Made by a program: the position numbers and the translations under genes. This document shows, in pieces, positions 1,605 through 17,991 of a DNA stretch of 64,000 bases (position 1 is the stretch's first letter; each line of letters begins with the position of its first letter). The stretch spans positions 17,958-81,957 of the forward strand of contig JBAYFP010000001.1 in the NCBI GenBank assembly GCA_041667145.1, given 5' to 3'. A model generated the notes under the pieces. The model was not told the origin of the DNA, ran no database searches, and worked only from the letters and a program-made list of their open reading frames with translations. The DNA is from Minisyncoccota bacterium. Its GTDB lineage: Bacteria; Patescibacteriota; Minisyncoccia; Phycocordibacterales; UBA9973.

Positions 1605-2046
1605 GTATTTGACAGTTCTATATCAACATATAATCGCCTTATTTAGAGATGTCAGCTCTGCATAGGCAATGGGAATCAGTCAAAATATATCTCGGAAGGA
1701 ATCTTAGAATGTGATTCCCTAGATCTTCCAGAACCATCCGAGACATAGCTCAGTTTAAAAAAATAGAATCTCCGACATTACTGAGCATCATTCGGGATAA
1801 TGAAGACTAATATGACTGCACTGGCGTATCTTAAAAGTTGTCTTCGAAACTCTTAAGATAAAAAACATAGGCCCTTACAGTTTAGATAATAAAGAACTAC
1901 AACAAATGTAGAAGGAGGCAAATATCACCTAACTCCTACATAATCAGGATAGCATATTCTGATTTAAAAGTCAAGCATTTTTAAAATACTTTTTTGAAAC
2001 ATAAATAATTCTTATAAAATAAGGCTACATTGAATTGCTCCAAACT

Positions 2047-2074
2047 TGGGAGGATGTTCGAATGGCTATACTTA
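2047..2074 (+). repeat. 28-bp direct repeat copy C (one substitution)
   Basis: GCTCCAAACTTGGGAGGATGTTCGAATG; followed by 10-codon ORF. Confidence 0.8.
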
Positions 2075-2206
2075 ACGAAAAAGAGCCCGTGTGATTATTT
2101 AATAATCCACAGAAATTATAAAAATATTTCTCTATAATAATAGTTAACTTAAAAGTTATTAACAACGAAAACTTGTTATTTTGCGTGATTTTGGTATATT
2201 GACAAT

Positions 2207-2806
2207 ATGGTCAAATTGGTCAATCGTACAGATTTTGTGTCTAAAATTAAGGCTAAAAAGATTAGTCTTTTTTCTGGACGTGAGATTCAAACATTATTTG
2301 GAGTTTCTAAGGTTGCTACCACTGGCATATTGCATCGTTATAGCAAGCAAGGTTTTATCATCCAAATTAAACGAGGTTTGTATGCGTTTCCTGATGCTTT
2401 ACCTCCTGAATTGTATCTTGCTAATAAACTCTATGATCCATCCTATATCTCAAGAGAGTTTGCTCTGTCATATCGTGGGATAATTCCTGAGATGGTATAT
2501 GAAATTACATCAGTGACAACTAAGGCTACACAAAAATTTAAAGCATTAGGTAAAATATATTCTTATCGTACGATTAAAAAATCTGCTTTTACTGGGTACA
2601 CAGTAGAGAAACAGCAAGGTTTTACTTTTCGCATAGCAGATGCAGAAAAAGCATTTGTTGATACTCTTTATTATCGCGTTATTTTTGGAAAAAAACCTAT
2701 AAGTCGTTTTAATAAAGAAAAAATAAATAAAAATAAAGCACTTAAATATGGTGAACTTTTTGATAATCCTAAACTTATTGGTATACTAAAGAGAACATTA
2801 TCATGA
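2207..2806 (+). CDS. AbiEi-family antitoxin / transcriptional regulator (type IV TA)
   Basis: N-terminal wHTH-like pattern ...LFGVSKVATTGILHRYSKQGFIIQIKRGLYAFPD typical of AbiEi; stop overlaps start of the next gene (ATGA). Confidence 0.55.
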   Translation: MVKLVNRTDFVSKIKAKKISLFSGREIQTLFGVSKVATTGILHRYSKQGFIIQIKRGLYAFPDALPPELYLANKLYDPSYISREFALSYRGIIPEMVYEITSVTTKATQKFKALGKIYSYRTIKKSAFTGYTVEKQQGFTFRIADAEKAFVDTLYYRVIFGKKPISRFNKEKINKNKALKYGELFDNPKLIGILKRTLS

Positions 2807-3567
2807 TTGGACCAGAACTATTAGAAAATATTGCACGACAGGAACAAACAAGCATATTCCCGAATATTGTTCGTGAATATGTGCAACATTTGTTTTTAAC
2901 CGAGTTATATCAACTTCCAGAATCGGAGAAATTGCTTTTTAAAGGTGGCACTGCTCTGCGTATAGTTTATAATTCGCCACGTTTTTCAGAAGATTTAGAC
3001 TTTTCTTTATTTGGAGTTCCTTCTAATGAAATTGGATCATTTGTTGATCGTTTATTTCTTGACGTTCTTGCAAAACTTGAAAGTACAGGTATTCACATAG
3101 AAATCGATAATAAATCTGCTCGGACATCTGGTGGATACTTTGGTCTAGCTACTCTCAATACAAATGGTTATCCTCCTATAAACATTGAAATCAATATATC
3201 ATCTAGAGGTGGAAATCATATTCAAGGAGAAATAGATAGTATCACAAATAATTTTGTACCAACGTATACGCTTTATCATTTACCACAAAAAGATATGGTT
3301 GATGAAAAAATATTTGGTGCATTGATTGATAGGAAAAAACCTCGTGATTATTATGATTTATATTTTTTGATGCGTAAGGGGATGTTGTCTCCAGAGCAAA
3401 AAAAACATCTTAGTGAAGTTGCAAAAGAAATCATTGATAGTTCTAAACAAGTTGATTTTCAAGGAGAACTTGGAATATTTTTACCTGCAAGCCAACAATC
3501 TATTATACGTGATTTTCCCCAAACATTAGAAAGAGAAATGCGTAATCAACTTTCCTTTAATCAATAA
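2803..3567 (+). CDS. AbiEii/AbiGii-family nucleotidyltransferase toxin (abortive infection)
   Basis: hallmark FKGGTALRIVYNSPRFSEDLDFS motif of the DUF1814/AbiEii NTase family; 4-bp overlap with upstream AbiEi. Confidence 0.75.
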   Translation: MIGPELLENIARQEQTSIFPNIVREYVQHLFLTELYQLPESEKLLFKGGTALRIVYNSPRFSEDLDFSLFGVPSNEIGSFVDRLFLDVLAKLESTGIHIEIDNKSARTSGGYFGLATLNTNGYPPINIEINISSRGGNHIQGEIDSITNNFVPTYTLYHLPQKDMVDEKIFGALIDRKKPRDYYDLYFLMRKGMLSPEQKKHLSEVAKEIIDSSKQVDFQGELGIFLPASQQSIIRDFPQTLEREMRNQLSFNQ

Positions 3568-3664
3568 AATTGTTATTTAATATAATATTCTATTACAGAA
3601 GATACGACTCTATTTTTTTAGTTATTAAATAATATGTAAATACTAAAAGTACTTTAATTAAAAT

Positions 3665-4948
3665 ATGGCTGATCCAATACGCACCAAAAAAGTTAGCATT
3701 TTTGCTGAAACTAAAGTAGTTGTAGAAGGCAAAGAATTACTTATAAAACTAAATACTCTAGTTGACGCAGATAAATTTCTTGCACTATCAGAAGAGGAGA
3801 AAAAAACCTTTTTACTCCAAGAGGCAAATAAAACATCACCAACACCAGTTAGTGGTATTTTTACCCTAAACTCATCTTTCAAGTATGTTAACCCAAGTTT
3901 TTTGAAAGAATTTAATTATGGAAATGTTTTAGTTGAATTAAATATTCCATATTGCTTACATATTCCAAATGGATATGAGCTAGAAGTTATGTTTTCAAAA
4001 GACACAAAACAAATGGCACTTATAATCCCTTCAAAAATTTGGACTCAAAAAGCACAAACCAACAAAGAACGATCTGATGAAACAGATTTTTTTGCTGATG
4101 ACAGAGTTCTCTATTTTCGCAAAAATGCAATAGTGGGTCCTAAAATGCCCTTAGACTTATCAGAGGGTTGGGAGCAAAATTATACAGGTTTTAATGTGAA
4201 TAGAATAAAAGATAGAAATGGAAGATTTCGCTTTACGCATTTATATATACAGTTTGATTTAACTGCTACTGAAAAAGAGTTAGAAAATAAGTTTAATTCT
4301 AATATAGTAATTGAAAAAGTAAAAGACATAACATTCCAAGTAGTTAATAAACTTATAGATGCCTATAGATTTACAACAAACGAAGAATATATCACTAGGC
4401 TTGGAGAAGTTAGTTTAACTATGATTTATTTCATTGATTTAAATCAAGGTATTTATTTATCACAAGTAAATACAGAGGTGGCACCAATGAATAGGTCTAA
4501 ACCAGAAATAGAAAAAATAGAAGAAATGTTAGATAAAGGAGATAGCCCAGATTTATATACTTTACTATTATTAGACGCACAGAACTCTTTCAATACCAAA
4601 AACTATCCTCTCGCTGTAGTCCAATCATTTCAAGCACTAGAAATCTTTATTGAAAATTTTTTAATTAAAGGATTTATTGATGTTGGTAAAACAGAAATAG
4701 AAGCTTCTGATTATATAATTCAAAGTAATAATTGGATGACTAAAACCAGATTAAAAGAGTTACTTAAAGAAATTAAAGGAAAATCTTTACAAGAAATAGA
4801 TCAATCTCTTTGGGATAAATGGTGCACCACCTACGATGTAGTAAGAACTGCTGTCATACACAAAGGTAAAGAACCTATTGTCTCTGAAATAAAAAATACT
4901 CTTGAAAATAATTTTCAAGTTATTGAGTTACTAAAATCATTGGTTTAA
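3665..4948 (+). CDS. hypothetical protein, possible C-terminal HEPN-like domain (Rx4H)
   Basis: 427 aa, no known catalytic motif except C-terminal VVRTAVIH (R-x4-H) preceded by helix-like ALEIFIENFL; sits in a defense island. Confidence 0.3.
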   Translation: MADPIRTKKVSIFAETKVVVEGKELLIKLNTLVDADKFLALSEEEKKTFLLQEANKTSPTPVSGIFTLNSSFKYVNPSFLKEFNYGNVLVELNIPYCLHIPNGYELEVMFSKDTKQMALIIPSKIWTQKAQTNKERSDETDFFADDRVLYFRKNAIVGPKMPLDLSEGWEQNYTGFNVNRIKDRNGRFRFTHLYIQFDLTATEKELENKFNSNIVIEKVKDITFQVVNKLIDAYRFTTNEEYITRLGEVSLTMIYFIDLNQGIYLSQVNTEVAPMNRSKPEIEKIEEMLDKGDSPDLYTLLLLDAQNSFNTKNYPLAVVQSFQALEIFIENFLIKGFIDVGKTEIEASDYIIQSNNWMTKTRLKELLKEIKGKSLQEIDQSLWDKWCTTYDVVRTAVIHKGKEPIVSEIKNTLENNFQVIELLKSLV

Positions 4949-5160
4949 GTAATTTTTATTTTCATAATAAAAACTATTCAGTTAATTGAATAATTCAAAT
5001 AATACTATTTTTTATTTTTTGTTATAATGATAATAATCAGCCGAAAGTTAAAAGCTGTTTTTAACTTACTTACCCTTCTTTAATATAGACCTAACAGTAA
5101 AAGTCGCTTCTAGCTTCTTGTTTTATTAGGTCCTAATATTATTAAATAAAATTAAAAAAT

Positions 5161-5562
5161 ATGTCTACAATAAAACAAAAAAAACTAGCAAAAGAAATAG
5201 TAAATAATATGAAAAGAACAAAACCCATTAATAAAGGAAAATTGGTGGAAATGGTTGGATATAGTAAAATAACAGCGGAAACAAAACCCGGAGAAATAAT
5301 TCATCAAAAAGGTGTTCAAGAAGAATTAAAAGAATTAGGTTTTGATGAAGATTCTGCAAAAAAGGTTGTTAGTGAAATAATGAATAATCCAAAAGCAGAA
5401 CCAGGTGCTAGATTAAAAGCAACGGACCAGGTATTTAAAGTTTTGGGTTTGTATTCTCCAAAAGAACCTGTTAATAAATTTGCTGGATGGAGCAGAGAAC
5501 AATTAATAGATCTAATCCTTTCAAAAATTACAAACAAATCAATTCATGTAGTTAGTCATTAG
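5161..5562 (+). CDS. phage terminase small subunit-like HTH protein
   Basis: N-terminus KQKKLAKEIV..GKLVEMVGYSKITAETKPGEIIHQKGVQEEL follows the Terminase_2 pattern (KQxxFxxEY..AGYSxKTA..). Confidence 0.35.
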   Translation: MSTIKQKKLAKEIVNNMKRTKPINKGKLVEMVGYSKITAETKPGEIIHQKGVQEELKELGFDEDSAKKVVSEIMNNPKAEPGARLKATDQVFKVLGLYSPKEPVNKFAGWSREQLIDLILSKITNKSIHVVSH

Positions 5563-5565
5563 AAG

Positions 5566-5973
5566 CTATTTTAAAAGACTTAGAAGAGGTAATAATGTTG
5601 CAGGAGAAATAATAAATATTGTATTTGATACAAACATAAGAATATTAATAAATACTAATAAAATCATAATCCATTTCTCTATTTCTCTTTCTTCATCAAT
5701 TTTAAAGATAGCTATTATTCCAAAAATAGCTGATATAAATATAGGCATTACATAAAAAATATAAAAAGGCACCCAATCTAAAAAATCTGGAACAGATAAA
5801 ATTTGAGATACAGATAAATGTTTATATATAAATTTAGGTACCCATTCATCTGGTATATATATCCCTAATAAATGTGATACAGAATATTCACCAACAAGCA
5901 AATAAAATATTGTAAAAATTACTGCCAGAATTGAAAATTTATTTATCTTTTTAAGCATGTGTTTATAAAACAA
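5566..5973 (-). CDS. hypothetical membrane protein
   Basis: 135 aa, 4 hydrophobic helices. Confidence 0.4.
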   Translation of the reverse strand: MFYKHMLKKINKFSILAVIFTIFYLLVGEYSVSHLLGIYIPDEWVPKFIYKHLSVSQILSVPDFLDWVPFYIFYVMPIFISAIFGIIAIFKIDEEREIEKWIMILLVFINILMFVSNTIFIISPATLLPLLSLLK

Positions 5974-7119
5974 TTACTGCTCATGTATAGCTGAATAATT
6001 AATAATAGAACCTAAGCTCTCTAATTCACCTACAGTTACAGATGTTGGTATACCAAACCAACAACCATTCTTTTTTAAGAAAGCTCCTCCACCAGAATTA
6101 CCATGTTCTATCTTAGCTGATGTCTTAATCATATATCCCTCAAATCCGCTTATAACTCCCTCTGTGGCAGTAATAGTGTCACCTCCTACTCCTGGATAAC
6201 CCAAAATTATGATTTCATCACCTAACTTAATACTACTAGATCGACAAAGGTTATGTGCAACTGTACTAACACTGTCTGGAAGAGTCTGTATTGGTTTAAG
6301 TAAGGCAATATCTAAAGTTGGGACGGTAGAAGCAACACTGGTGTCATACCAACGTACGGGAGATTTCTTTATATCATCTGTAACCCCCACACTGCATAAA
6401 ACTGAGTCTTTTACTACATGTAAGTTAGTTAAAATAAATTTATTTAACCCGAAAATAGTTCCACTCCCTACAACAAAATTTTCAGAAGATCCATCAGAAC
6501 AGATTATCCTAACTATATATTTTGCTAAGTCACTCGCAAGCAGTGAACTGTTTGCCTGAGTAGAAGTGATAATTTTTTGTGGTTTGTTTTTGAGTATTTC
6601 TACTTCTTGTCTTAAATTTTCAACTTCTAGATTTTTTAATTTTTGTGTTTCTTTATCTTTTTTTTCTTTATTAATCTTTTCAATTTCATCTACTAGATTT
6701 ATTTTTTCTTTATTCAATACTTCCTTAAATATTTTTATGTCTTCTTCTGTAAAATTCTTTACTAATTTATTTACTTCATCGTTTTTATCTTCTCTTATAA
6801 GTTTTTGTACCCTCAAAACAACAGGAAACATTCTTTTTTCAGCTTGATAATTTTGATAGTACTTAAAGCCAAAATAACTAGCACCACCAATAACAACCAT
6901 ACTCAAAAATAGTATAGGGATAAACCACTTGTATTTTAAATATTTTATTTTAATCCCTTTTGATTTCAAAAACCTGAATATAAAATACGAAGTCAAAATG
7001 AGAAACAGAAAGACAATAAAATAAATGATCTCATTAGTAGAAATACTACTTTTCTGATGTGTAGTTTCTAAAATCGTAGGTGAAACTTCTTCTTTTGGAA
7101 ATTCATAAGGTATTATCAT
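5974..7119 (-). CDS. membrane-anchored trypsin-like serine peptidase (S1 family) with coiled-coil
   Basis: N-terminal TM, KE-rich coiled coil, C-terminal domain with TNLHVV (His), DIALL (Asp), GNSGG (Ser) motifs. Confidence 0.6.
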   Translation of the reverse strand: MIIPYEFPKEEVSPTILETTHQKSSISTNEIIYFIVFLFLILTSYFIFRFLKSKGIKIKYLKYKWFIPILFLSMVVIGGASYFGFKYYQNYQAEKRMFPVVLRVQKLIREDKNDEVNKLVKNFTEEDIKIFKEVLNKEKINLVDEIEKINKEKKDKETQKLKNLEVENLRQEVEILKNKPQKIITSTQANSSLLASDLAKYIVRIICSDGSSENFVVGSGTIFGLNKFILTNLHVVKDSVLCSVGVTDDIKKSPVRWYDTSVASTVPTLDIALLKPIQTLPDSVSTVAHNLCRSSSIKLGDEIIILGYPGVGGDTITATEGVISGFEGYMIKTSAKIEHGNSGGGAFLKKNGCWFGIPTSVTVGELESLGSIINYSAIHEQ

Positions 7120-7123
7120 AATT

Positions 7124-7726
7124 TTAATTTTCTATTTCATAATAAAAGTCTTTCCCATTTTCTCGTTTACAAAATGATGAATAATAATTTCCATTATTAA
7201 TGAATAATATAGTTAATCCATCTGATTTCCAAAATAAACATAATAATTCCTCGTCATTTTTTATTGCTTCAAGAGAATATTTTTTTGAAAGCCCATACAA
7301 AAACTCATAAGAGTAATAAATAACTATTATTAATAGTGACAATATAGTAAACCATTGCTTTTCAAAAATTGAGGATAAAAGTAAAACAACAAACGAGATA
7401 TTGACCACATATTCTCTTGTGGGAGAATTTGGAGTTAATAAAAAGAAAGCTATTACTGAAAAAGGCAGAGTAAGAAGTAATATAAAATTACTAGTTACAA
7501 AACTATAAATTATAAGAGCTAATATCAGTACAAACGGGACTGCAGCACTAAGCATAGTTCTTGTTCTTAAATTTTTTGGCACCTTGTGTCCTGATATTAT
7601 CCAATTTAAAGCATTGCCTTTTGCTACGAGTAATTGACTTTCTTTTTTATTAAGTGATTCTTGTAATTGGTCAAAATTAGTGAAGGGAAAATTTTTTAAA
7701 TACTCAATTTTTTCAAAATTTTTCAT
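7124..7726 (-). CDS. hypothetical membrane protein
   Basis: 200 aa, several TM helices. Confidence 0.4.
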   Translation of the reverse strand: MKNFEKIEYLKNFPFTNFDQLQESLNKKESQLLVAKGNALNWIISGHKVPKNLRTRTMLSAAVPFVLILALIIYSFVTSNFILLLTLPFSVIAFFLLTPNSPTREYVVNISFVVLLLSSIFEKQWFTILSLLIIVIYYSYEFLYGLSKKYSLEAIKNDEELLCLFWKSDGLTILFINNGNYYSSFCKRENGKDFYYEIEN

Positions 7727-8203
7727 AAATTATTTACTAGAACGCAAAAAGCTCCCAGCCAGCTTGATGGTTTTTAAGCCACCCGTATCCGTTTCCAGAT
7801 ACGACACAGTGAAGTGTAAACTCTGACTAGGAGTTCTTTATTCTTCACTGTGTTTTTAACCATACCTTATAGCTTTTTAAGCAATAAGGGTTAGGTCCTG
7901 TTTATTTAATTGTATTTATATTGTAACAAAAGAGAATTTGATAGTCTAATGTTTTTTTATTTGACTTTTAAAGCTTAGGAGTTAGAATAGAAATGTAGAG
8001 TTTTTAAAAAATAAAATATATGGCTTCTATTATTCAGAGAGTTTTTGTTTTTCCGCGAGACCAATAATTTTGGATACGCGAGATAGTCTTTAAAAGATTA
8101 AACCTGAAAATTGAATGCTAAATTATTACTAAAAAGATAACTCTTTTTAGGGTGTATTTAGTGTTTAATTTTTAGCTTAGGTCTAAAAATGAACAAATAA
8201 ATT

Positions 8204-8226
8204 ACCGCCAGTCGCGGTTTTTTTAT
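8204..8226 (+). terminator. small hairpin + T7 run
   Basis: ACCGC..GCGGT stem followed by TTTTTTT. Confidence 0.3.
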
Positions 8227-8261
8227 TTGTCTAAGCACTTCTTATTATACCCTTAATTTTT

Positions 8262-8432
8262 ATGGAATTAAGTGAGAAGGCAAAAAAAGAATTAAAACAA
8301 ATTCTTCAAAAGGAAATAGGTTTCGAGAGTGTCTCAATGCTCACTGATCAAGAGATTAATCATCTTGGTGTTTTTTTTCTTTCTATTTTTACTGAATCAC
8401 TCAAAATGAAAAATCTTAAAAAAAGCATATAA
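8262..8432 (+). CDS. small ORF (56 aa) immediately upstream of the serine recombinase
   Basis: ATG 8262 to TAA 8430-8432, MELSEKAKKELKQILQKEIGFESVSMLTDQEINHLGVFFLSIFTESLKMKNLKKSI; position suggests a helper/RDF-like protein but no motif. Confidence 0.2.
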   Translation: MELSEKAKKELKQILQKEIGFESVSMLTDQEINHLGVFFLSIFTESLKMKNLKKSI

Positions 8433-8440
8433 TATAAATT

Positions 8441-10111
8441 ATGGATAAAGATTTTTATAAAAACTTAAAAGTAGCAGGTTATTCTAGAAAATCATCTGAA
8501 GCAGAAGATAGACAAGTACTTTCTATAGGCTCACAAAAAGATGAGATAGAGAAAATGAAAGAATTAAATGGAATTACAGACACAATTTATTACGAAGACA
8601 GTAAATCAGCAAAAACTCCAGGAATAAGAGATCATTTTTCAAACATGATACAGGATATAAAAAATGGTAAAAGAAATGCAATTGCATGTTGGAAACCCGA
8701 CAGACTTGCAAGAAATATGGATGAGGGTGGAGAGATTATAGATTTATTACAAAGAGGAATTATCAAATCAATAATTACGCCTAGTAAAACCTATACACCT
8801 TCTGAACCAAGCTGGTCATTACTTCTTGAATTTGGTATGGCTAATCAGTTTAGTCGTGATTTATCTGTAAACGTAAAAAGAGGTCAAAATAAAAAAGCTA
8901 GAATGGGTATTCCACATGGATTAGCAAAAATAGGTTTTTTGAATGACAAAACTGAAGAAAAAGGAAATAGAAAATGGTTGATTGACGAAAAAAGATTTCG
9001 AATAATAAAAGAGGTATTTAAGGTATATCTAACTGGTAATTATTCTGGAGGTCAAATGTATGATCTAGCAATAAGAGCCGGACTTACTACACCAAAACAC
9101 AAACATAGTGGTGGTAATTCAATAACCCATTCTAGAATATATACAATATTAAAAGATACAATATATGCTGGTTTTTTTCATCAAGGAGGAGAAAGATACG
9201 AGTTAGATAAAACCTTACCTAGAATTATTACCGAAGATGAACACGAGAAAGTACTTAGAATGCTTTCTGGTAAAAATATACCAAAAACACAAACTCATCA
9301 ATCGATGTATGGCGGTTTTATAATATCACCTCAAAATAAATCCATAGGTACAGACTGTAAATTTCAAATTATATGTGAGTGTAAATACAAATTTTCTTAT
9401 ATTAATAAAACTCATTGTCCAAAATGTGGAAAAGAAATAATTTTAATAAAAAATCCAAAATATCTTGAGTATGAATATTATTACAATGTTGCCTTGAAAA
9501 AGAAAAAGTGGTCAATTAAAAATATTTCACAAAGTAAAGTTACTGATTTTTTATTAGAATTTGCGGATAAGTTTTCAATGTCCCCCGCTCTTGCAAATTG
9601 GTCCAGACGCCATATCCATGAAATTCATGATTCTGAAGTTGAATCAAAATTAGTGGTTGTAGAAAGTCAAAAGGAAAGGATTGAACAACTAGAAACAAAA
9701 AAGGAAAGATACCGTAATATGTTAGCTGATGAGATGATAGAAAGAGAAGAATACGAACATGACACAAAGAAATTTAGCGCCGAAATAGAAAAAATTAAAC
9801 AAAATTCACAAAACCAAGTAAATTGGCTACAAGAAGCTGAAAAAATAATTGACTTGGGGTTAGAAATGAAAAAAATAATCAAAAATGGAACCACAATGGC
9901 AAAAAGAGAGATACTTTCTAAACTCGGTTCGAACCTAATCTGGGACGAGGAAGAACTCAATATTATCAACAAAAAACCAATCCAAGTGCTGATCGATGGA
10001 CTTCTTTGGGCCAAACAAAAAAATCCTAAGTTCGAACCTAGTTCTATAGTTGATACATCAAGTCAGAATGATGTTTTTGAGGACATTCGTCCTATCTTGC
10101 TCCGGGGGTAG
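8441..10111 (+). CDS. large serine recombinase (resolvase/invertase catalytic domain + recombinase domain + zinc ribbon)
   Basis: N-terminal AGYSRKSSEAEDRQ..SIGSQ catalytic-serine motif, DRLAR, C-terminal CPKCGKE zinc ribbon; 556 aa; 3' end overlaps the tRNA 3' end. Confidence 0.85.
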   Translation: MDKDFYKNLKVAGYSRKSSEAEDRQVLSIGSQKDEIEKMKELNGITDTIYYEDSKSAKTPGIRDHFSNMIQDIKNGKRNAIACWKPDRLARNMDEGGEIIDLLQRGIIKSIITPSKTYTPSEPSWSLLLEFGMANQFSRDLSVNVKRGQNKKARMGIPHGLAKIGFLNDKTEEKGNRKWLIDEKRFRIIKEVFKVYLTGNYSGGQMYDLAIRAGLTTPKHKHSGGNSITHSRIYTILKDTIYAGFFHQGGERYELDKTLPRIITEDEHEKVLRMLSGKNIPKTQTHQSMYGGFIISPQNKSIGTDCKFQIICECKYKFSYINKTHCPKCGKEIILIKNPKYLEYEYYYNVALKKKKWSIKNISQSKVTDFLLEFADKFSMSPALANWSRRHIHEIHDSEVESKLVVVESQKERIEQLETKKERYRNMLADEMIEREEYEHDTKKFSAEIEKIKQNSQNQVNWLQEAEKIIDLGLEMKKIIKNGTTMAKREILSKLGSNLIWDEEELNIINKKPIQVLIDGLLWAKQKNPKFEPSSIVDTSSQNDVFEDIRPILLRG

Positions 10112-10416
10112 GGATCGAACCTACGACCAATCGCTTACACTTTATCTTCTATTACTAGAAGTGTGGACTATATCATCTCCATGTTCATAACTTATGAATT
10201 TAGGAGCAAGGCGCTTCGCGCTCTAATAAATATTAGAGAGCTACTCCAAAATGGATAGTCTCTACACCTTCCTCAATTTTGTAATTGAGGCTTGGCTCGG
10301 GATTACCCTAAAAGGGCTTCCCCGAATTCACCTTGTTGTTCAACCTACCTTTTGATAGGAAGCTGCGTAATTTTTTATCGACACAGGCGACCGCTCTACC
10401 GCTGAGCTACCCCGGA
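10100..10416 (-). tRNA. tRNA (probably Asn-GUU) interrupted by a group I intron in the anticodon loop
   Basis: 5' exon TCCGGGGTAGCTCAGCGGTAGAGCGGTCGCCTGT (10383-10416) and 3' exon TAAGCGATTGGTCGTAGGTTCGATCCCTACCCCCGGAG (10100-10137) fold into a 72-nt cloverleaf with anticodon loop CUGUUAA; exact splice junction not resolvable by eye. Confidence 0.7.
10138..10382 (-). ncRNA. group I intron (IC3-like, Azoarcus/cyanobacterial tRNA intron type)
   Basis: contains AATCCCGAGCCAAGCC and GGAAGGTGTAGAGACTATCC, matching the conserved P7/P3 region (GAGCCAAGC, GAAGGUGUAGAGACUA) of Azoarcus tRNA-Ile and cyanobacterial tRNA-Leu introns. Confidence 0.7.
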
Positions 10417-16875: not shown

Positions 16876-17991
16876 ATGGTAAAAATACTAAAGAAACAGG
16901 GGAAAATAGTCAAAGTCAAAAAACAAAACAAAAAAACTGTTTCACTTAAAACTCGTAAAAAAGGCAAAAAAATAATTAAAATAGCGAAACTTAAAAGATT
17001 TTCGCATAATCCAATTATTGAGCCTAGCCCATATCCTTGGGAATCCAAAGCTACATTTAATCCAACTGCCTTTTTAGTGGATGGAAAAATTCATCTTATT
17101 TATCGAGCAATCGGTGATGATGATGTATCAGTTTTAGGATATGCTTCTAGTTTAGATGGTTCTAAAATAAAAGAAAGGTTTGCATATTCTATTTATAATA
17201 AATTTGGAAAATTTGTAAAATCTGGAGAGCCTATAAACTATATTTCAGGAGGGGGGTGGAATGGTGGTTGTGAAGATCCACGTGTTACTTTGATAGATAA
17301 TGTAGTTTATATGATTTATACAGCTTTTGATGGTTGGGGATCTTTACGAATGGCTTTAACTTCTATCAAACTAGATGATTTTAAAAAAAAGAAATGGAAC
17401 TGGGAAAAACCAATTTTAATTTCTCCTCCTGGTGAAATTCATAAAAATTGGGTTTTATTTCCAGAAAAAATAAATGGTAAATTTGCGATTTTGCATAGTA
17501 TCTCTCCTAAAGTTTTAATAGATTATGTGAAAAATTTTGATGAATTTGATGGTACTAAATTTATAAAAAGTTATCACAGTAGCACTCCTTCTTGGGGAAA
17601 TTCATGGGATAATATAGTGAGAGGCGTAGGCCCAACGCCAATAAAAATCAAAATAGGTTGGCTTGTTTTATATCATGCCATGGATAGAAACGATCCCAAC
17701 AGATATAAATTGGGGGCTATGATTTTAGACCTCAAGGATCCAACAAAAGTTTTGTATCGTTCTCCTTGTCCAATATTAGAGCCAGATGAAGATTATGAGA
17801 ATGAAGGATTTAAAGCTGGTGTCATATATTCCTGTGGTGCAGTAGTGAAAGACGGACAGCTTTTTGTATACTATGGTGGGGCTGATAGTGTAGTTTGTGT
17901 AGCTTCTATAAAACTATCAGATTTGATAAATAATCTTGTGAAAAATAAAAATATTAAATTAGAAAAAAATAAAAAATTTGAACTTAATTAA
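16876..17991 (+). CDS. glycoside hydrolase family 130 (beta-mannoside phosphorylase-like, DUF377)
   Basis: GCEDPRV, YTAFDG, YYGGAD hallmark motifs. Confidence 0.7.
   Translation: MVKILKKQGKIVKVKKQNKKTVSLKTRKKGKKIIKIAKLKRFSHNPIIEPSPYPWESKATFNPTAFLVDGKIHLIYRAIGDDDVSVLGYASSLDGSKIKERFAYSIYNKFGKFVKSGEPINYISGGGWNGGCEDPRVTLIDNVVYMIYTAFDGWGSLRMALTSIKLDDFKKKKWNWEKPILISPPGEIHKNWVLFPEKINGKFAILHSISPKVLIDYVKNFDEFDGTKFIKSYHSSTPSWGNSWDNIVRGVGPTPIKIKIGWLVLYHAMDRNDPNRYKLGAMILDLKDPTKVLYRSPCPILEPDEDYENEGFKAGVIYSCGAVVKDGQLFVYYGGADSVVCVASIKLSDLINNLVKNKNIKLEKNKKFELN

Follow-up and report, generated by a model that had tools for sequence, protein, structure and literature searches.

The stretch analysed here, 64,000 nt long and referred to throughout as the window (positions 17,958 to 81,957 of contig JBAYFP010000001.1, assembly GCA_041667145.1), comes from the genome of a Minisyncoccota bacterium and contains two overlapping genes that form a toxin–antitoxin (TA) pair of the AbiE family. 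The first, abiEi (2207–2806, + strand), begins with ATG and encodes a 199-aa AbiEi antitoxin and regulator; the second, abiEii (2803–3567, + strand), also begins with ATG and encodes a 254-aa toxin, a DUF1814 nucleotidyltransferase (NTase) of the polymerase-beta fold. The tetranucleotide ATGA is common to both genes, such that the abiEi stop codon TGA occupies positions 2804–2806 and the abiEii start codon positions 2803–2805, and the toxin carries the two signatures FKGGTALR (F46 to R53) and RFSEDLDF (R60 to F67). These open reading frame (ORF) coordinates, the 4-bp overlap and both signatures agree with a preliminary description of the locus, and its identification of an AbiEi/AbiEii pair in the usual overlapping order is upheld by hidden Markov models (HMMs), active-site motifs, structure models and conserved gene order. 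The pair is a genuine and intact AbiEi/AbiEii cassette, and an ordinary member of a well-known and widely distributed family.

The two proteins of the pair

Both proteins match the family HMMs against which the preliminary description had proposed to compare them, at levels far above chance, and the refuting outcome named there, a lack of any significant match to the AbiEii NTase family, did not occur. AbiEii matches the Pfam family AbiEii (PF08843) over residues 31–227 with 96.2 bits (E=3.9e-27; cut-off 22.5) and the PADLOC AbiEii model over residues 1–252 (E=4.1e-24). AbiEi matches AbiEi_4 (PF13338) with 30.8 bits (E=3.2e-7; cut-off 25), over residues 17–62 and thus the winged helix-turn-helix (wHTH) only, and the PADLOC AbiEi model PDLC02241 over residues 18–197 of 199 (E=3.6e-40). 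The AbiEii protein of Streptococcus agalactiae has four motifs whose mutation abolishes toxicity (Dy et al. 2014, PMC3985639): motif I, hG[G/S], including G49; motif II, with R63 and D67-h-D69; motif III, with K173 and R180; and motif IV, +DxxD, including D192. The corresponding residues in the toxin described here are G48-G49 within F46-K47-G48-G49 (motif I), R60 and D64-L-D66 (motif II), K169 and R177 (motif III), and R181-D182-Y-Y-D185 (motif IV), and none of them varies among 26 aligned homologs of 60–86% identity.

Single-sequence searches of the PDB with either protein gave only marginal matches, and it was by profile that the toxin reached proteins of solved structure. The profile of the 26-homolog alignment matches Helicobacter pylori JHP933 (4O8S/4OK0; E=1.4e-5), AbiGII (9HLO; E=3.3e-5) and, marginally, Mycobacterium tuberculosis MenT4 (6Y56), with motifs II and IV aligned in all three. 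An AlphaFold2 model of the toxin (predicted local distance difference test, pLDDT, 74.8; predicted template modelling score, pTM, 0.72) finds 4OK0 as its best PDB match with Foldseek (E=3.4e-7; template modelling score, TM, 0.62/0.69), and the further top matches include MenT1 (8AN4) and the fungal DUF1814 protein 5UVD, with generic polymerase-beta NTases ranking lower.

The neighborhood of motif II suggests how the toxin may be neutralized. According to a 2026 preprint (10.64898/2026.01.19.700257), AbiEi of S. agalactiae forms a complex with AbiEii and brings about its auto-phosphorylation at T65, abolishing NTase activity, and AbiEii and MenT proteins modify tRNAs by pyrimidine-specific nucleotide addition. 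Phospho-acceptors adjacent to motif II are T65 in AbiEii, S78 in MenT3 and T39 in MenT1. In the toxin described here an invariant serine, S62 of R60-F-S62-E-D64, occupies the motif position of T65 in R63-x-T65-x-D67, and because of this match, which is one of position only, S62 is the predicted phospho-acceptor; its location is compatible with an antitoxin-induced auto-phosphorylation (type VII) mechanism. The authors of the preprint moved AbiE from type IV, in which an antitoxin neutralizes its toxin with neither binding nor modification, to type VII, and the 'type IV' of the preliminary description is the historical label.

The antitoxin has the wHTH-like N-terminus that had been ascribed to it, seen in both the PF13338 match and the AlphaFold2 model (pLDDT 70.6). 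Residues 7–60 of the model follow the winged-helix order H1-S1-H2-t-H3-S2-W-S3 (helices at 7–16, 24–31 and 35–47; strands at 21–23, 52–55 and 58–60), and a C-terminal alpha/beta domain completes a two-domain architecture. The best PDB match of the model is 6Y8Q, the AbiEi of S. agalactiae (E=2.5e-5, probability 1.0), and ordinary wHTH regulators rank after it. The toxin-contacting loop of the S. agalactiae protein is D85/E86/I87; I93-P94-E95, invariant in the alignment of AbiEi homologs, is a candidate only for the equivalent loop.

The NCBI record for the identical toxin already reads 'nucleotidyl transferase AbiEii/AbiGii toxin family protein [Candidatus Paceibacterota bacterium]', a taxon that corresponds to the phylum Minisyncoccota of the Patescibacteria or Candidate Phyla Radiation (CPR) lineage, and the identical antitoxin is recorded as 'hypothetical protein WCS86_00125'. 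Antitoxin homologs at about 70% identity carry the name AbiEi family antitoxin in the database, and the 199-aa gene can be re-annotated in the same way.

Both genes are under strong purifying selection. They are full length (199 and 254 aa), with lengths matching those of more than 100 homolog clusters, and dN/dS (the ratio of nonsynonymous to synonymous substitution rates) is 0.08–0.11 for abiEi, measured against seven close relatives, and about 0.06–0.075 for abiEii, measured against the four relatives whose genes are free of gaps, values which show that selection maintains the pair. Because the two are accessory genes of a reduced genome, and one of them has no name in the NCBI annotation, they might be suspected of being what remains of a horizontally acquired cassette that is decaying and no longer functional. 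However, the ORFs are complete, the catalytic residues are intact, dN/dS lies between 0.06 and 0.11 and the promoter and putative operator are conserved (see below), and we consider decay extremely improbable.

Cassette limits, promoter and putative operator

The arrangement of the two genes is a general one. We fetched 86 loci by way of the toxin, from CPR phyla, DPANN archaea, Omnitrophota, Chloroflexota, Bacteroidota and others, and 80 of the 91 toxin ORFs that they contain are immediately preceded by an AbiEi-like ORF of the same strand, several of the exceptions being located at contig ends. The most common offset between the two genes is −4, as here (27 cases), followed by −8 (19 cases). 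Several genomes have two AbiEi–AbiEii pairs within a few kb (L012, L014, L046, L050 and L057; relatives are designated by such locus numbers), and those of L014 (3314–6228) stand directly in tandem, which suggests accumulation or duplication of cassettes.

It could be asked whether the DUF1814 protein is a toxin at all, rather than, for example, a housekeeping enzyme that modifies RNA or small molecules and whose upstream neighbor is merely its transcriptional regulator. The closest solved structure, JHP933, is indeed described only as a putative nucleotidyltransferase. Against this, the gene order, the translational coupling and the two-domain AbiEi partner are those of validated TA pairs, motif IV and a serine at the phospho-acceptor position are retained, and the family is distributed patchily, in the manner of a cassette, across CPR, DPANN and many other phyla, as is typical of TA and defense genes. 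A non-toxic role thus appears very unlikely.

The limits of the cassette are apparent from comparison with its seven distinct closest relatives (eight loci). DNA similarity begins at 2151–2179 and ends at 3566–3580, and the genes flanking the cassette differ in every relative genome examined; the conserved unit therefore consists of the promoter, abiEi and abiEii, about 1.42 kb at approximately 2151–3580. The two-gene cassette alone is the unit conserved in relatives.

The promoter and operator region of the cassette, delimited by promoter scanning and by conservation in relatives, lies at 2151–2206 on the + strand. It contains a −35 hexamer, TTGTTA (2173–2178), a 16-nt spacer and a TG-extended −10 hexamer, TATATT (2195–2200), and the spacing between −35, −10 and ATG is kept in 10 close relatives. 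Because only 6 nt separate the −10 element from the abiEi ATG and a Shine-Dalgarno sequence is lacking, the abiEi–abiEii mRNA is probably leaderless.

Superimposed on this promoter is a palindrome, TTGAC-aatatg-GTCAA (2200–2215, without orientation), with its left arm at 2200–2204. It overlaps the end of the −10 element, the predicted transcription start and codons 1–3 of abiEi, and an extra half-site, GGTCAAT, lies at 2219–2225. The AbiEi of S. agalactiae represses its own promoter by cooperative binding to inverted repeats (PMC7319586), and negative autoregulation of S. agalactiae AbiE through inverted repeats in the promoter has been described separately (Dy et al. 2014, PMC3985639); because of this precedent, we read the palindrome as a likely operator for AbiEi.

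Two further observations bear on this assignment. First, the arms vary in a compensated manner among the 10 sequences used to examine covariation, a sample limited by a metagenome scan that yielded 14 loci, seven of them close. The window, L087, L090 and L005 have perfect 5-bp arms, TTGAC/GTCAA, and L002 has GTGAC/GTCAA, with one outer mismatch; the arms of L088, L089, L091 and L003 are TTAGC/GCTAA, again perfect with both inner base pairs changed and the change compensated, and L092 has TTAGT/GCTAA, with a single mismatch. In the TTAGC/GCTAA haplotype the altered arms also change codon 2 of abiEi from Val to Ala. Second, palindromes are enriched across the family. More distant relatives have longer palindromes whose center is at the abiEi start codon or slightly upstream of it, and palindromes matching at 9 or more of 10 positions are found at 31% of 74 abiEi starts, compared with 5% of 821 control gene starts in the same loci (Mann-Whitney p=8.5e-11).

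Directly upstream of the −35 hexamer, most close relatives (L087, L088, L089, L003, L092 and L002) share another conserved element, TTATCCACAG, some 50 nt ahead of the abiEi start, and the window (2157–2168) and L090 carry TTATTAACAA at the same position. This element could be an UP element or a site for a second regulator.

Farther upstream are repeats of a different kind. A 29–37 nt sequence, GCTCCAGACTTGGGAGGATGTTCGAATGG, is present in three copies, all on the + strand (449–485, 1520–1556 and 2037–2073), where none would be expected by chance. The copies are spaced by 1071 and 517 nt and bracket an S51 peptidase gene and an ORF-free stretch, and when the minus strand is read each follows a terminator-like hairpin at a distance of about 25 nt (505–535, 1574–1604 and 2083–2110). 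The repeat has no match in AbiE relatives, in Rfam or in viral contigs. It was considered as part of the AbiE promoter and rejected, being absent from all relatives, in which similarity starts at about 2151. The ORF-free stretch (1605–2036, 432 nt) folds much better than its shuffled counterparts when read on the minus strand (z=−3.96; 0 of 100 shuffles), the plus strand showing a smaller excess (z=−2.44), and its minus strand ends at a hairpin followed by a T-run (1604 to 1574). The minus strand may encode a structured RNA that has escaped annotation; no Rfam family matches the stretch at E≤0.2.

The surrounding low-GC segment

The preliminary description proposed that the pair anchors a probable defense or mobile island, and this is partly supported. 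The guanine-plus-cytosine (GC) content is 27–30% at positions 2001–10000 and 32–37% in most of the remaining window, a dip consistent with a foreign origin of the segment that holds AbiE, a HEPN gene, a protease gene, a LOOT RNA and a recombinase gene. The protease is trypsin-like and membrane-anchored (5974–7119). The LOOT RNA (Rfam RF03000; 7766–7897, − strand) scores 77.1 bits against a gathering score of 46.4 and lies between the gene for a 200-aa membrane protein and the recombinase gene.

The HEPN gene (3665–4948, + strand) encodes a 427-aa protein that NCBI lists as hypothetical. Family alignment and Pfam comparison place an Apea-like HEPN domain at its C-terminus, with an invariant R394-x4-H399 (consensus TRNEVIHKG), behind an uncharacterized N-terminal region of about 300 aa. 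Its family is small, comprising 69 CPR proteins, and 16 of 27 members match the Pfam HEPN_Apea model; the protein is a probable HEPN RNase and, more tentatively, a candidate for a novel defense effector. Its gene was considered as a third AbiE component and rejected, since it is unlike the genes downstream of AbiE in relatives and is absent beside AbiE in about 97 other AbiE loci. DNA similarity of the HEPN gene to relatives starts at 3646, and the HEPN protein is a module separate from the AbiE cassette. Of the four independent contexts of its family, three have a serine recombinase at a distance of 2–3 kb, and in L104 the HEPN-family gene adjoins an SLFN_AlbA_2 gene.

The right part of the segment has the features of an integrated element. 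A large serine recombinase (integrase) is encoded at 8441–10111 on the + strand (Pfam Resolvase and Recombinase domains; PHROG integrase, E=1.6e-48) and probably provides the mobility function of the low-GC segment around it. The end of its ORF, including the stop codon, overlaps by 13 nt the 3′ end of a tRNA-Thr(UGU) gene (10099–10416, − strand), whose anticodon loop is split by a group I intron of 245 nt, inserted between positions 32 and 33 (Rfam Intron_gpI, 66.7 bits). The standard tRNA scan missed this gene because of the intron, and ARAGORN finds it when introns are allowed. This layout is typical of an integrated element, and the tRNA-Thr gene is a likely integration site. A search for direct and inverted repeats found no attachment (att) repeats that would define a left edge of the island, and there is no second copy of the tRNA-Thr 3′ end within the window; nor does the triple repeat upstream of the cassette match that 3′ end, as a tRNA-derived att site would. 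The neighboring HEPN gene, the serine recombinase beside a tRNA gene and the low GC content thus favor an island, and against it, the cassette alone is conserved and PADLOC found no other known defense protein among 14 neighboring proteins (a single match, to PDC-M35A, is weak at E=1.7e-4).

These surroundings raise the question of what the pair is selected for, and the same proteins could serve mainly as an addiction module that stabilizes the recombinase-borne segment rather than as a phage-triggered abortive infection system. Such a role fits the location of the pair, in low-GC DNA with a large serine recombinase next to tRNA-Thr at its boundary, and it fits the relative L005, in which a serine recombinase lies 1.7 kb from AbiE. 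AbiE is known to stabilize plasmids (Dy et al. 2014, PMC3985639) and the ICESa2603 family (PMC11062541), and AbiE of S. agalactiae failed to protect Escherichia coli from any of 32 coliphages. However, a recombinase is present within the fetched flanks of only two of about 98 AbiE loci (the window and L005, so that a systematic link between AbiE and serine recombinases is unsupported), the cassette occurs in many unrelated chromosomal contexts, and AbiE of Lactococcus lactis confers phage resistance. A predominantly stabilizing function is possible, and we would think it somewhat less than evenly probable; it overlaps the explanation that we prefer and differs from it only in the function under selection. 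Phage defense and element stabilization are both documented for AbiE, and either or both may be served here.

Proposed mechanism and relation to known AbiE systems

The explanation that we prefer, and hold to be very probably correct as a whole, is that the locus is a functional bicistronic abiEi–abiEii TA cassette, horizontally acquired by a Candidatus Paceibacterota genome, that would act in the manner of its characterized relatives. As in S. agalactiae AbiE and M. tuberculosis MenAT, AbiEii would be a Mg2+-dependent nucleotidyltransferase that adds (pyrimidine) nucleotides to the 3′ acceptor ends of tRNAs, blocking aminoacylation and translation and arresting growth. The wHTH of AbiEi would repress the operon by binding the TTGAC-N6-GTCAA palindrome over the −10 element, the transcription start and the start codon, and its C-terminal domain would bind the toxin and trigger auto-phosphorylation at Ser62, switching off the NTase in a type VII-like neutralization. 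If the supply of antitoxin failed, either through shut-off of host expression by a phage or through loss of the element, free or dephosphorylated toxin would halt translation, and the infection may then be aborted, the loss of the mobile segment penalized, or both.

Several points weigh against parts of this explanation. First, toxicity, the tRNA target, the nucleotide preference, S62 phosphorylation and DNA binding are all argued by analogy with proteins that are structurally aligned at 14–17% identity. Second, the antitoxin scores 40.8 bits (E=1.8e-10) against the NCBIfam equivalog model NF047376 (TAA_AbiEi), below its 150-bit cut-off, which is why it is named a hypothetical protein by NCBI; it is a member of the AbiEi family and not an equivalog of the NF047376 seed group. 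Third, a profile built from 32 diverse AbiEi sequences has no match to 6Y8Q even at E≤10, and the TM of the AbiEi model to 6Y8Q is only 0.37–0.41 because residues 71–123, where the toxin-contacting loop is expected, are poorly modeled. Fourth, the spacing of promoter and start codon is the single line of evidence for the leaderless start, and the compensated change in the operator may represent one evolutionary event. Finally, the coliphage result for S. agalactiae AbiE indicates that phage defense is not guaranteed for every AbiE.

The preliminary description held that small, host-dependent genomes are seldom noted to carry defense modules, a statement that is not borne out for this family. 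There are 3,329 toxin homologs in the database at E≤1e-5; more than 100 clusters reach 60% identity or above, and the named ones among these are mostly from Patescibacteria; hundreds of close homologs belong to Patescibacteria and DPANN, and species-representative genomes with AbiE relatives span many CPR phyla and DPANN archaea. In a groundwater survey (PMC12259885) AbiE is one of five 'first-line' families present in more than 10% of bacterial metagenome-assembled genomes, these families are not preferentially located in defense islands, and the density of defense systems per Mb is higher in CPR than in other phyla, with Paceibacteria the densest CPR class. One patescibacterial epibiont is reported to carry an AbiEi–AbiEii pair (PMC13059738), a study of 2016 remarked on abortive-infection and TA genes in CPR (PMC4742961), and functional TA systems including AbiE-type ones are present in mycoplasmas (PMC8562856).

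That the AbiE family is common in CPR was thus already known, and the toxin was already named in GenBank. The additions made here are modest: the identity of the antitoxin, the predicted phosphorylation site S62, the limits of the cassette, and a conserved leaderless-type promoter with a co-varying operator. They leave the current understanding of AbiE systems unchanged and have little importance beyond annotation. The conserved promoter and palindrome provide a testable operator for a large AbiE clade of uncultivated CPR bacteria, and the HEPN protein together with the recombinase/tRNA-Thr junction is a small, tractable example of the carriage of accessory defense-type genes in reduced genomes. 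A stronger proposition, which we advance tentatively and with some doubt, is that a Patescibacteria-centered clade has a form of regulation undescribed for AbiE, in which a leaderless transcript has its start and second codon inside the operator and the antitoxin codons co-evolve with the binding site (TTGAC/GTCAA with Val2 versus TTAGC/GCTAA with Ala2), and that here the cassette is moreover part of a composite cargo, with the 427-aa HEPN RNase, on a serine-recombinase element at an intron-containing tRNA-Thr gene.

Among known systems, those of the patescibacterial epibiont Strigamonas methylophilicida (PMC13059738) and of mycoplasmas (PMC8562856) belong to the same family and reside in small, host-dependent genomes, the former beside other defense genes; they represent other lineages. 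H. pylori JHP933 and AbiGII are the closest solved structures by both sequence profile and fold, with alignment of RFSEDLDF (motif II) and K.RD..DL.F (motif IV). They differ in that the annotation of JHP933, which is encoded on a plasticity zone, goes no further than putative NTase, and that the partner of AbiGii is AbiGi rather than an AbiEi-type wHTH antitoxin. The M. tuberculosis MenA/MenT systems (MenT1, MenT3 and MenT4) share the DUF1814 fold and an active-site strand of the RFS.D.DF type; the FKGGTSLR...RFSTDLDFS of MenT4 aligns with the toxin, MenT3 has a serine phospho-acceptor (S78) like the one predicted here, and the expected activity is extension of the tRNA acceptor stem. MenT1, in contrast, is much shorter and has another type of antitoxin, and sequence similarity to the Men systems is marginal (E=0.007 with a profile).

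A further comparison is with the AbiEi–AbiEii system of S. agalactiae. Both are bicistronic with the antitoxin gene first, and both consist of an antitoxin with a wHTH and a C-terminal domain and a DUF1814 NTase with motifs I–IV; both have a serine or threonine two residues before the first aspartate of motif II (S62 here and T65 there) and inverted repeats at the promoter, and the S. agalactiae antitoxin, 6Y8Q, is the best fold match in the PDB for the antitoxin model. The differences are nonetheless considerable. Identity in structural alignment is about 14–15%, the toxin is shorter (254 aa, compared with a 33.3-kDa His-tagged S. agalactiae protein), the spacing between motifs I and II is about two residues shorter and that between K and R of motif III one residue longer, and a serine rather than a threonine occupies the phospho-acceptor position. 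Finally, the palindrome in the window extends over both the −10 element and the start codon of a probably leaderless mRNA.

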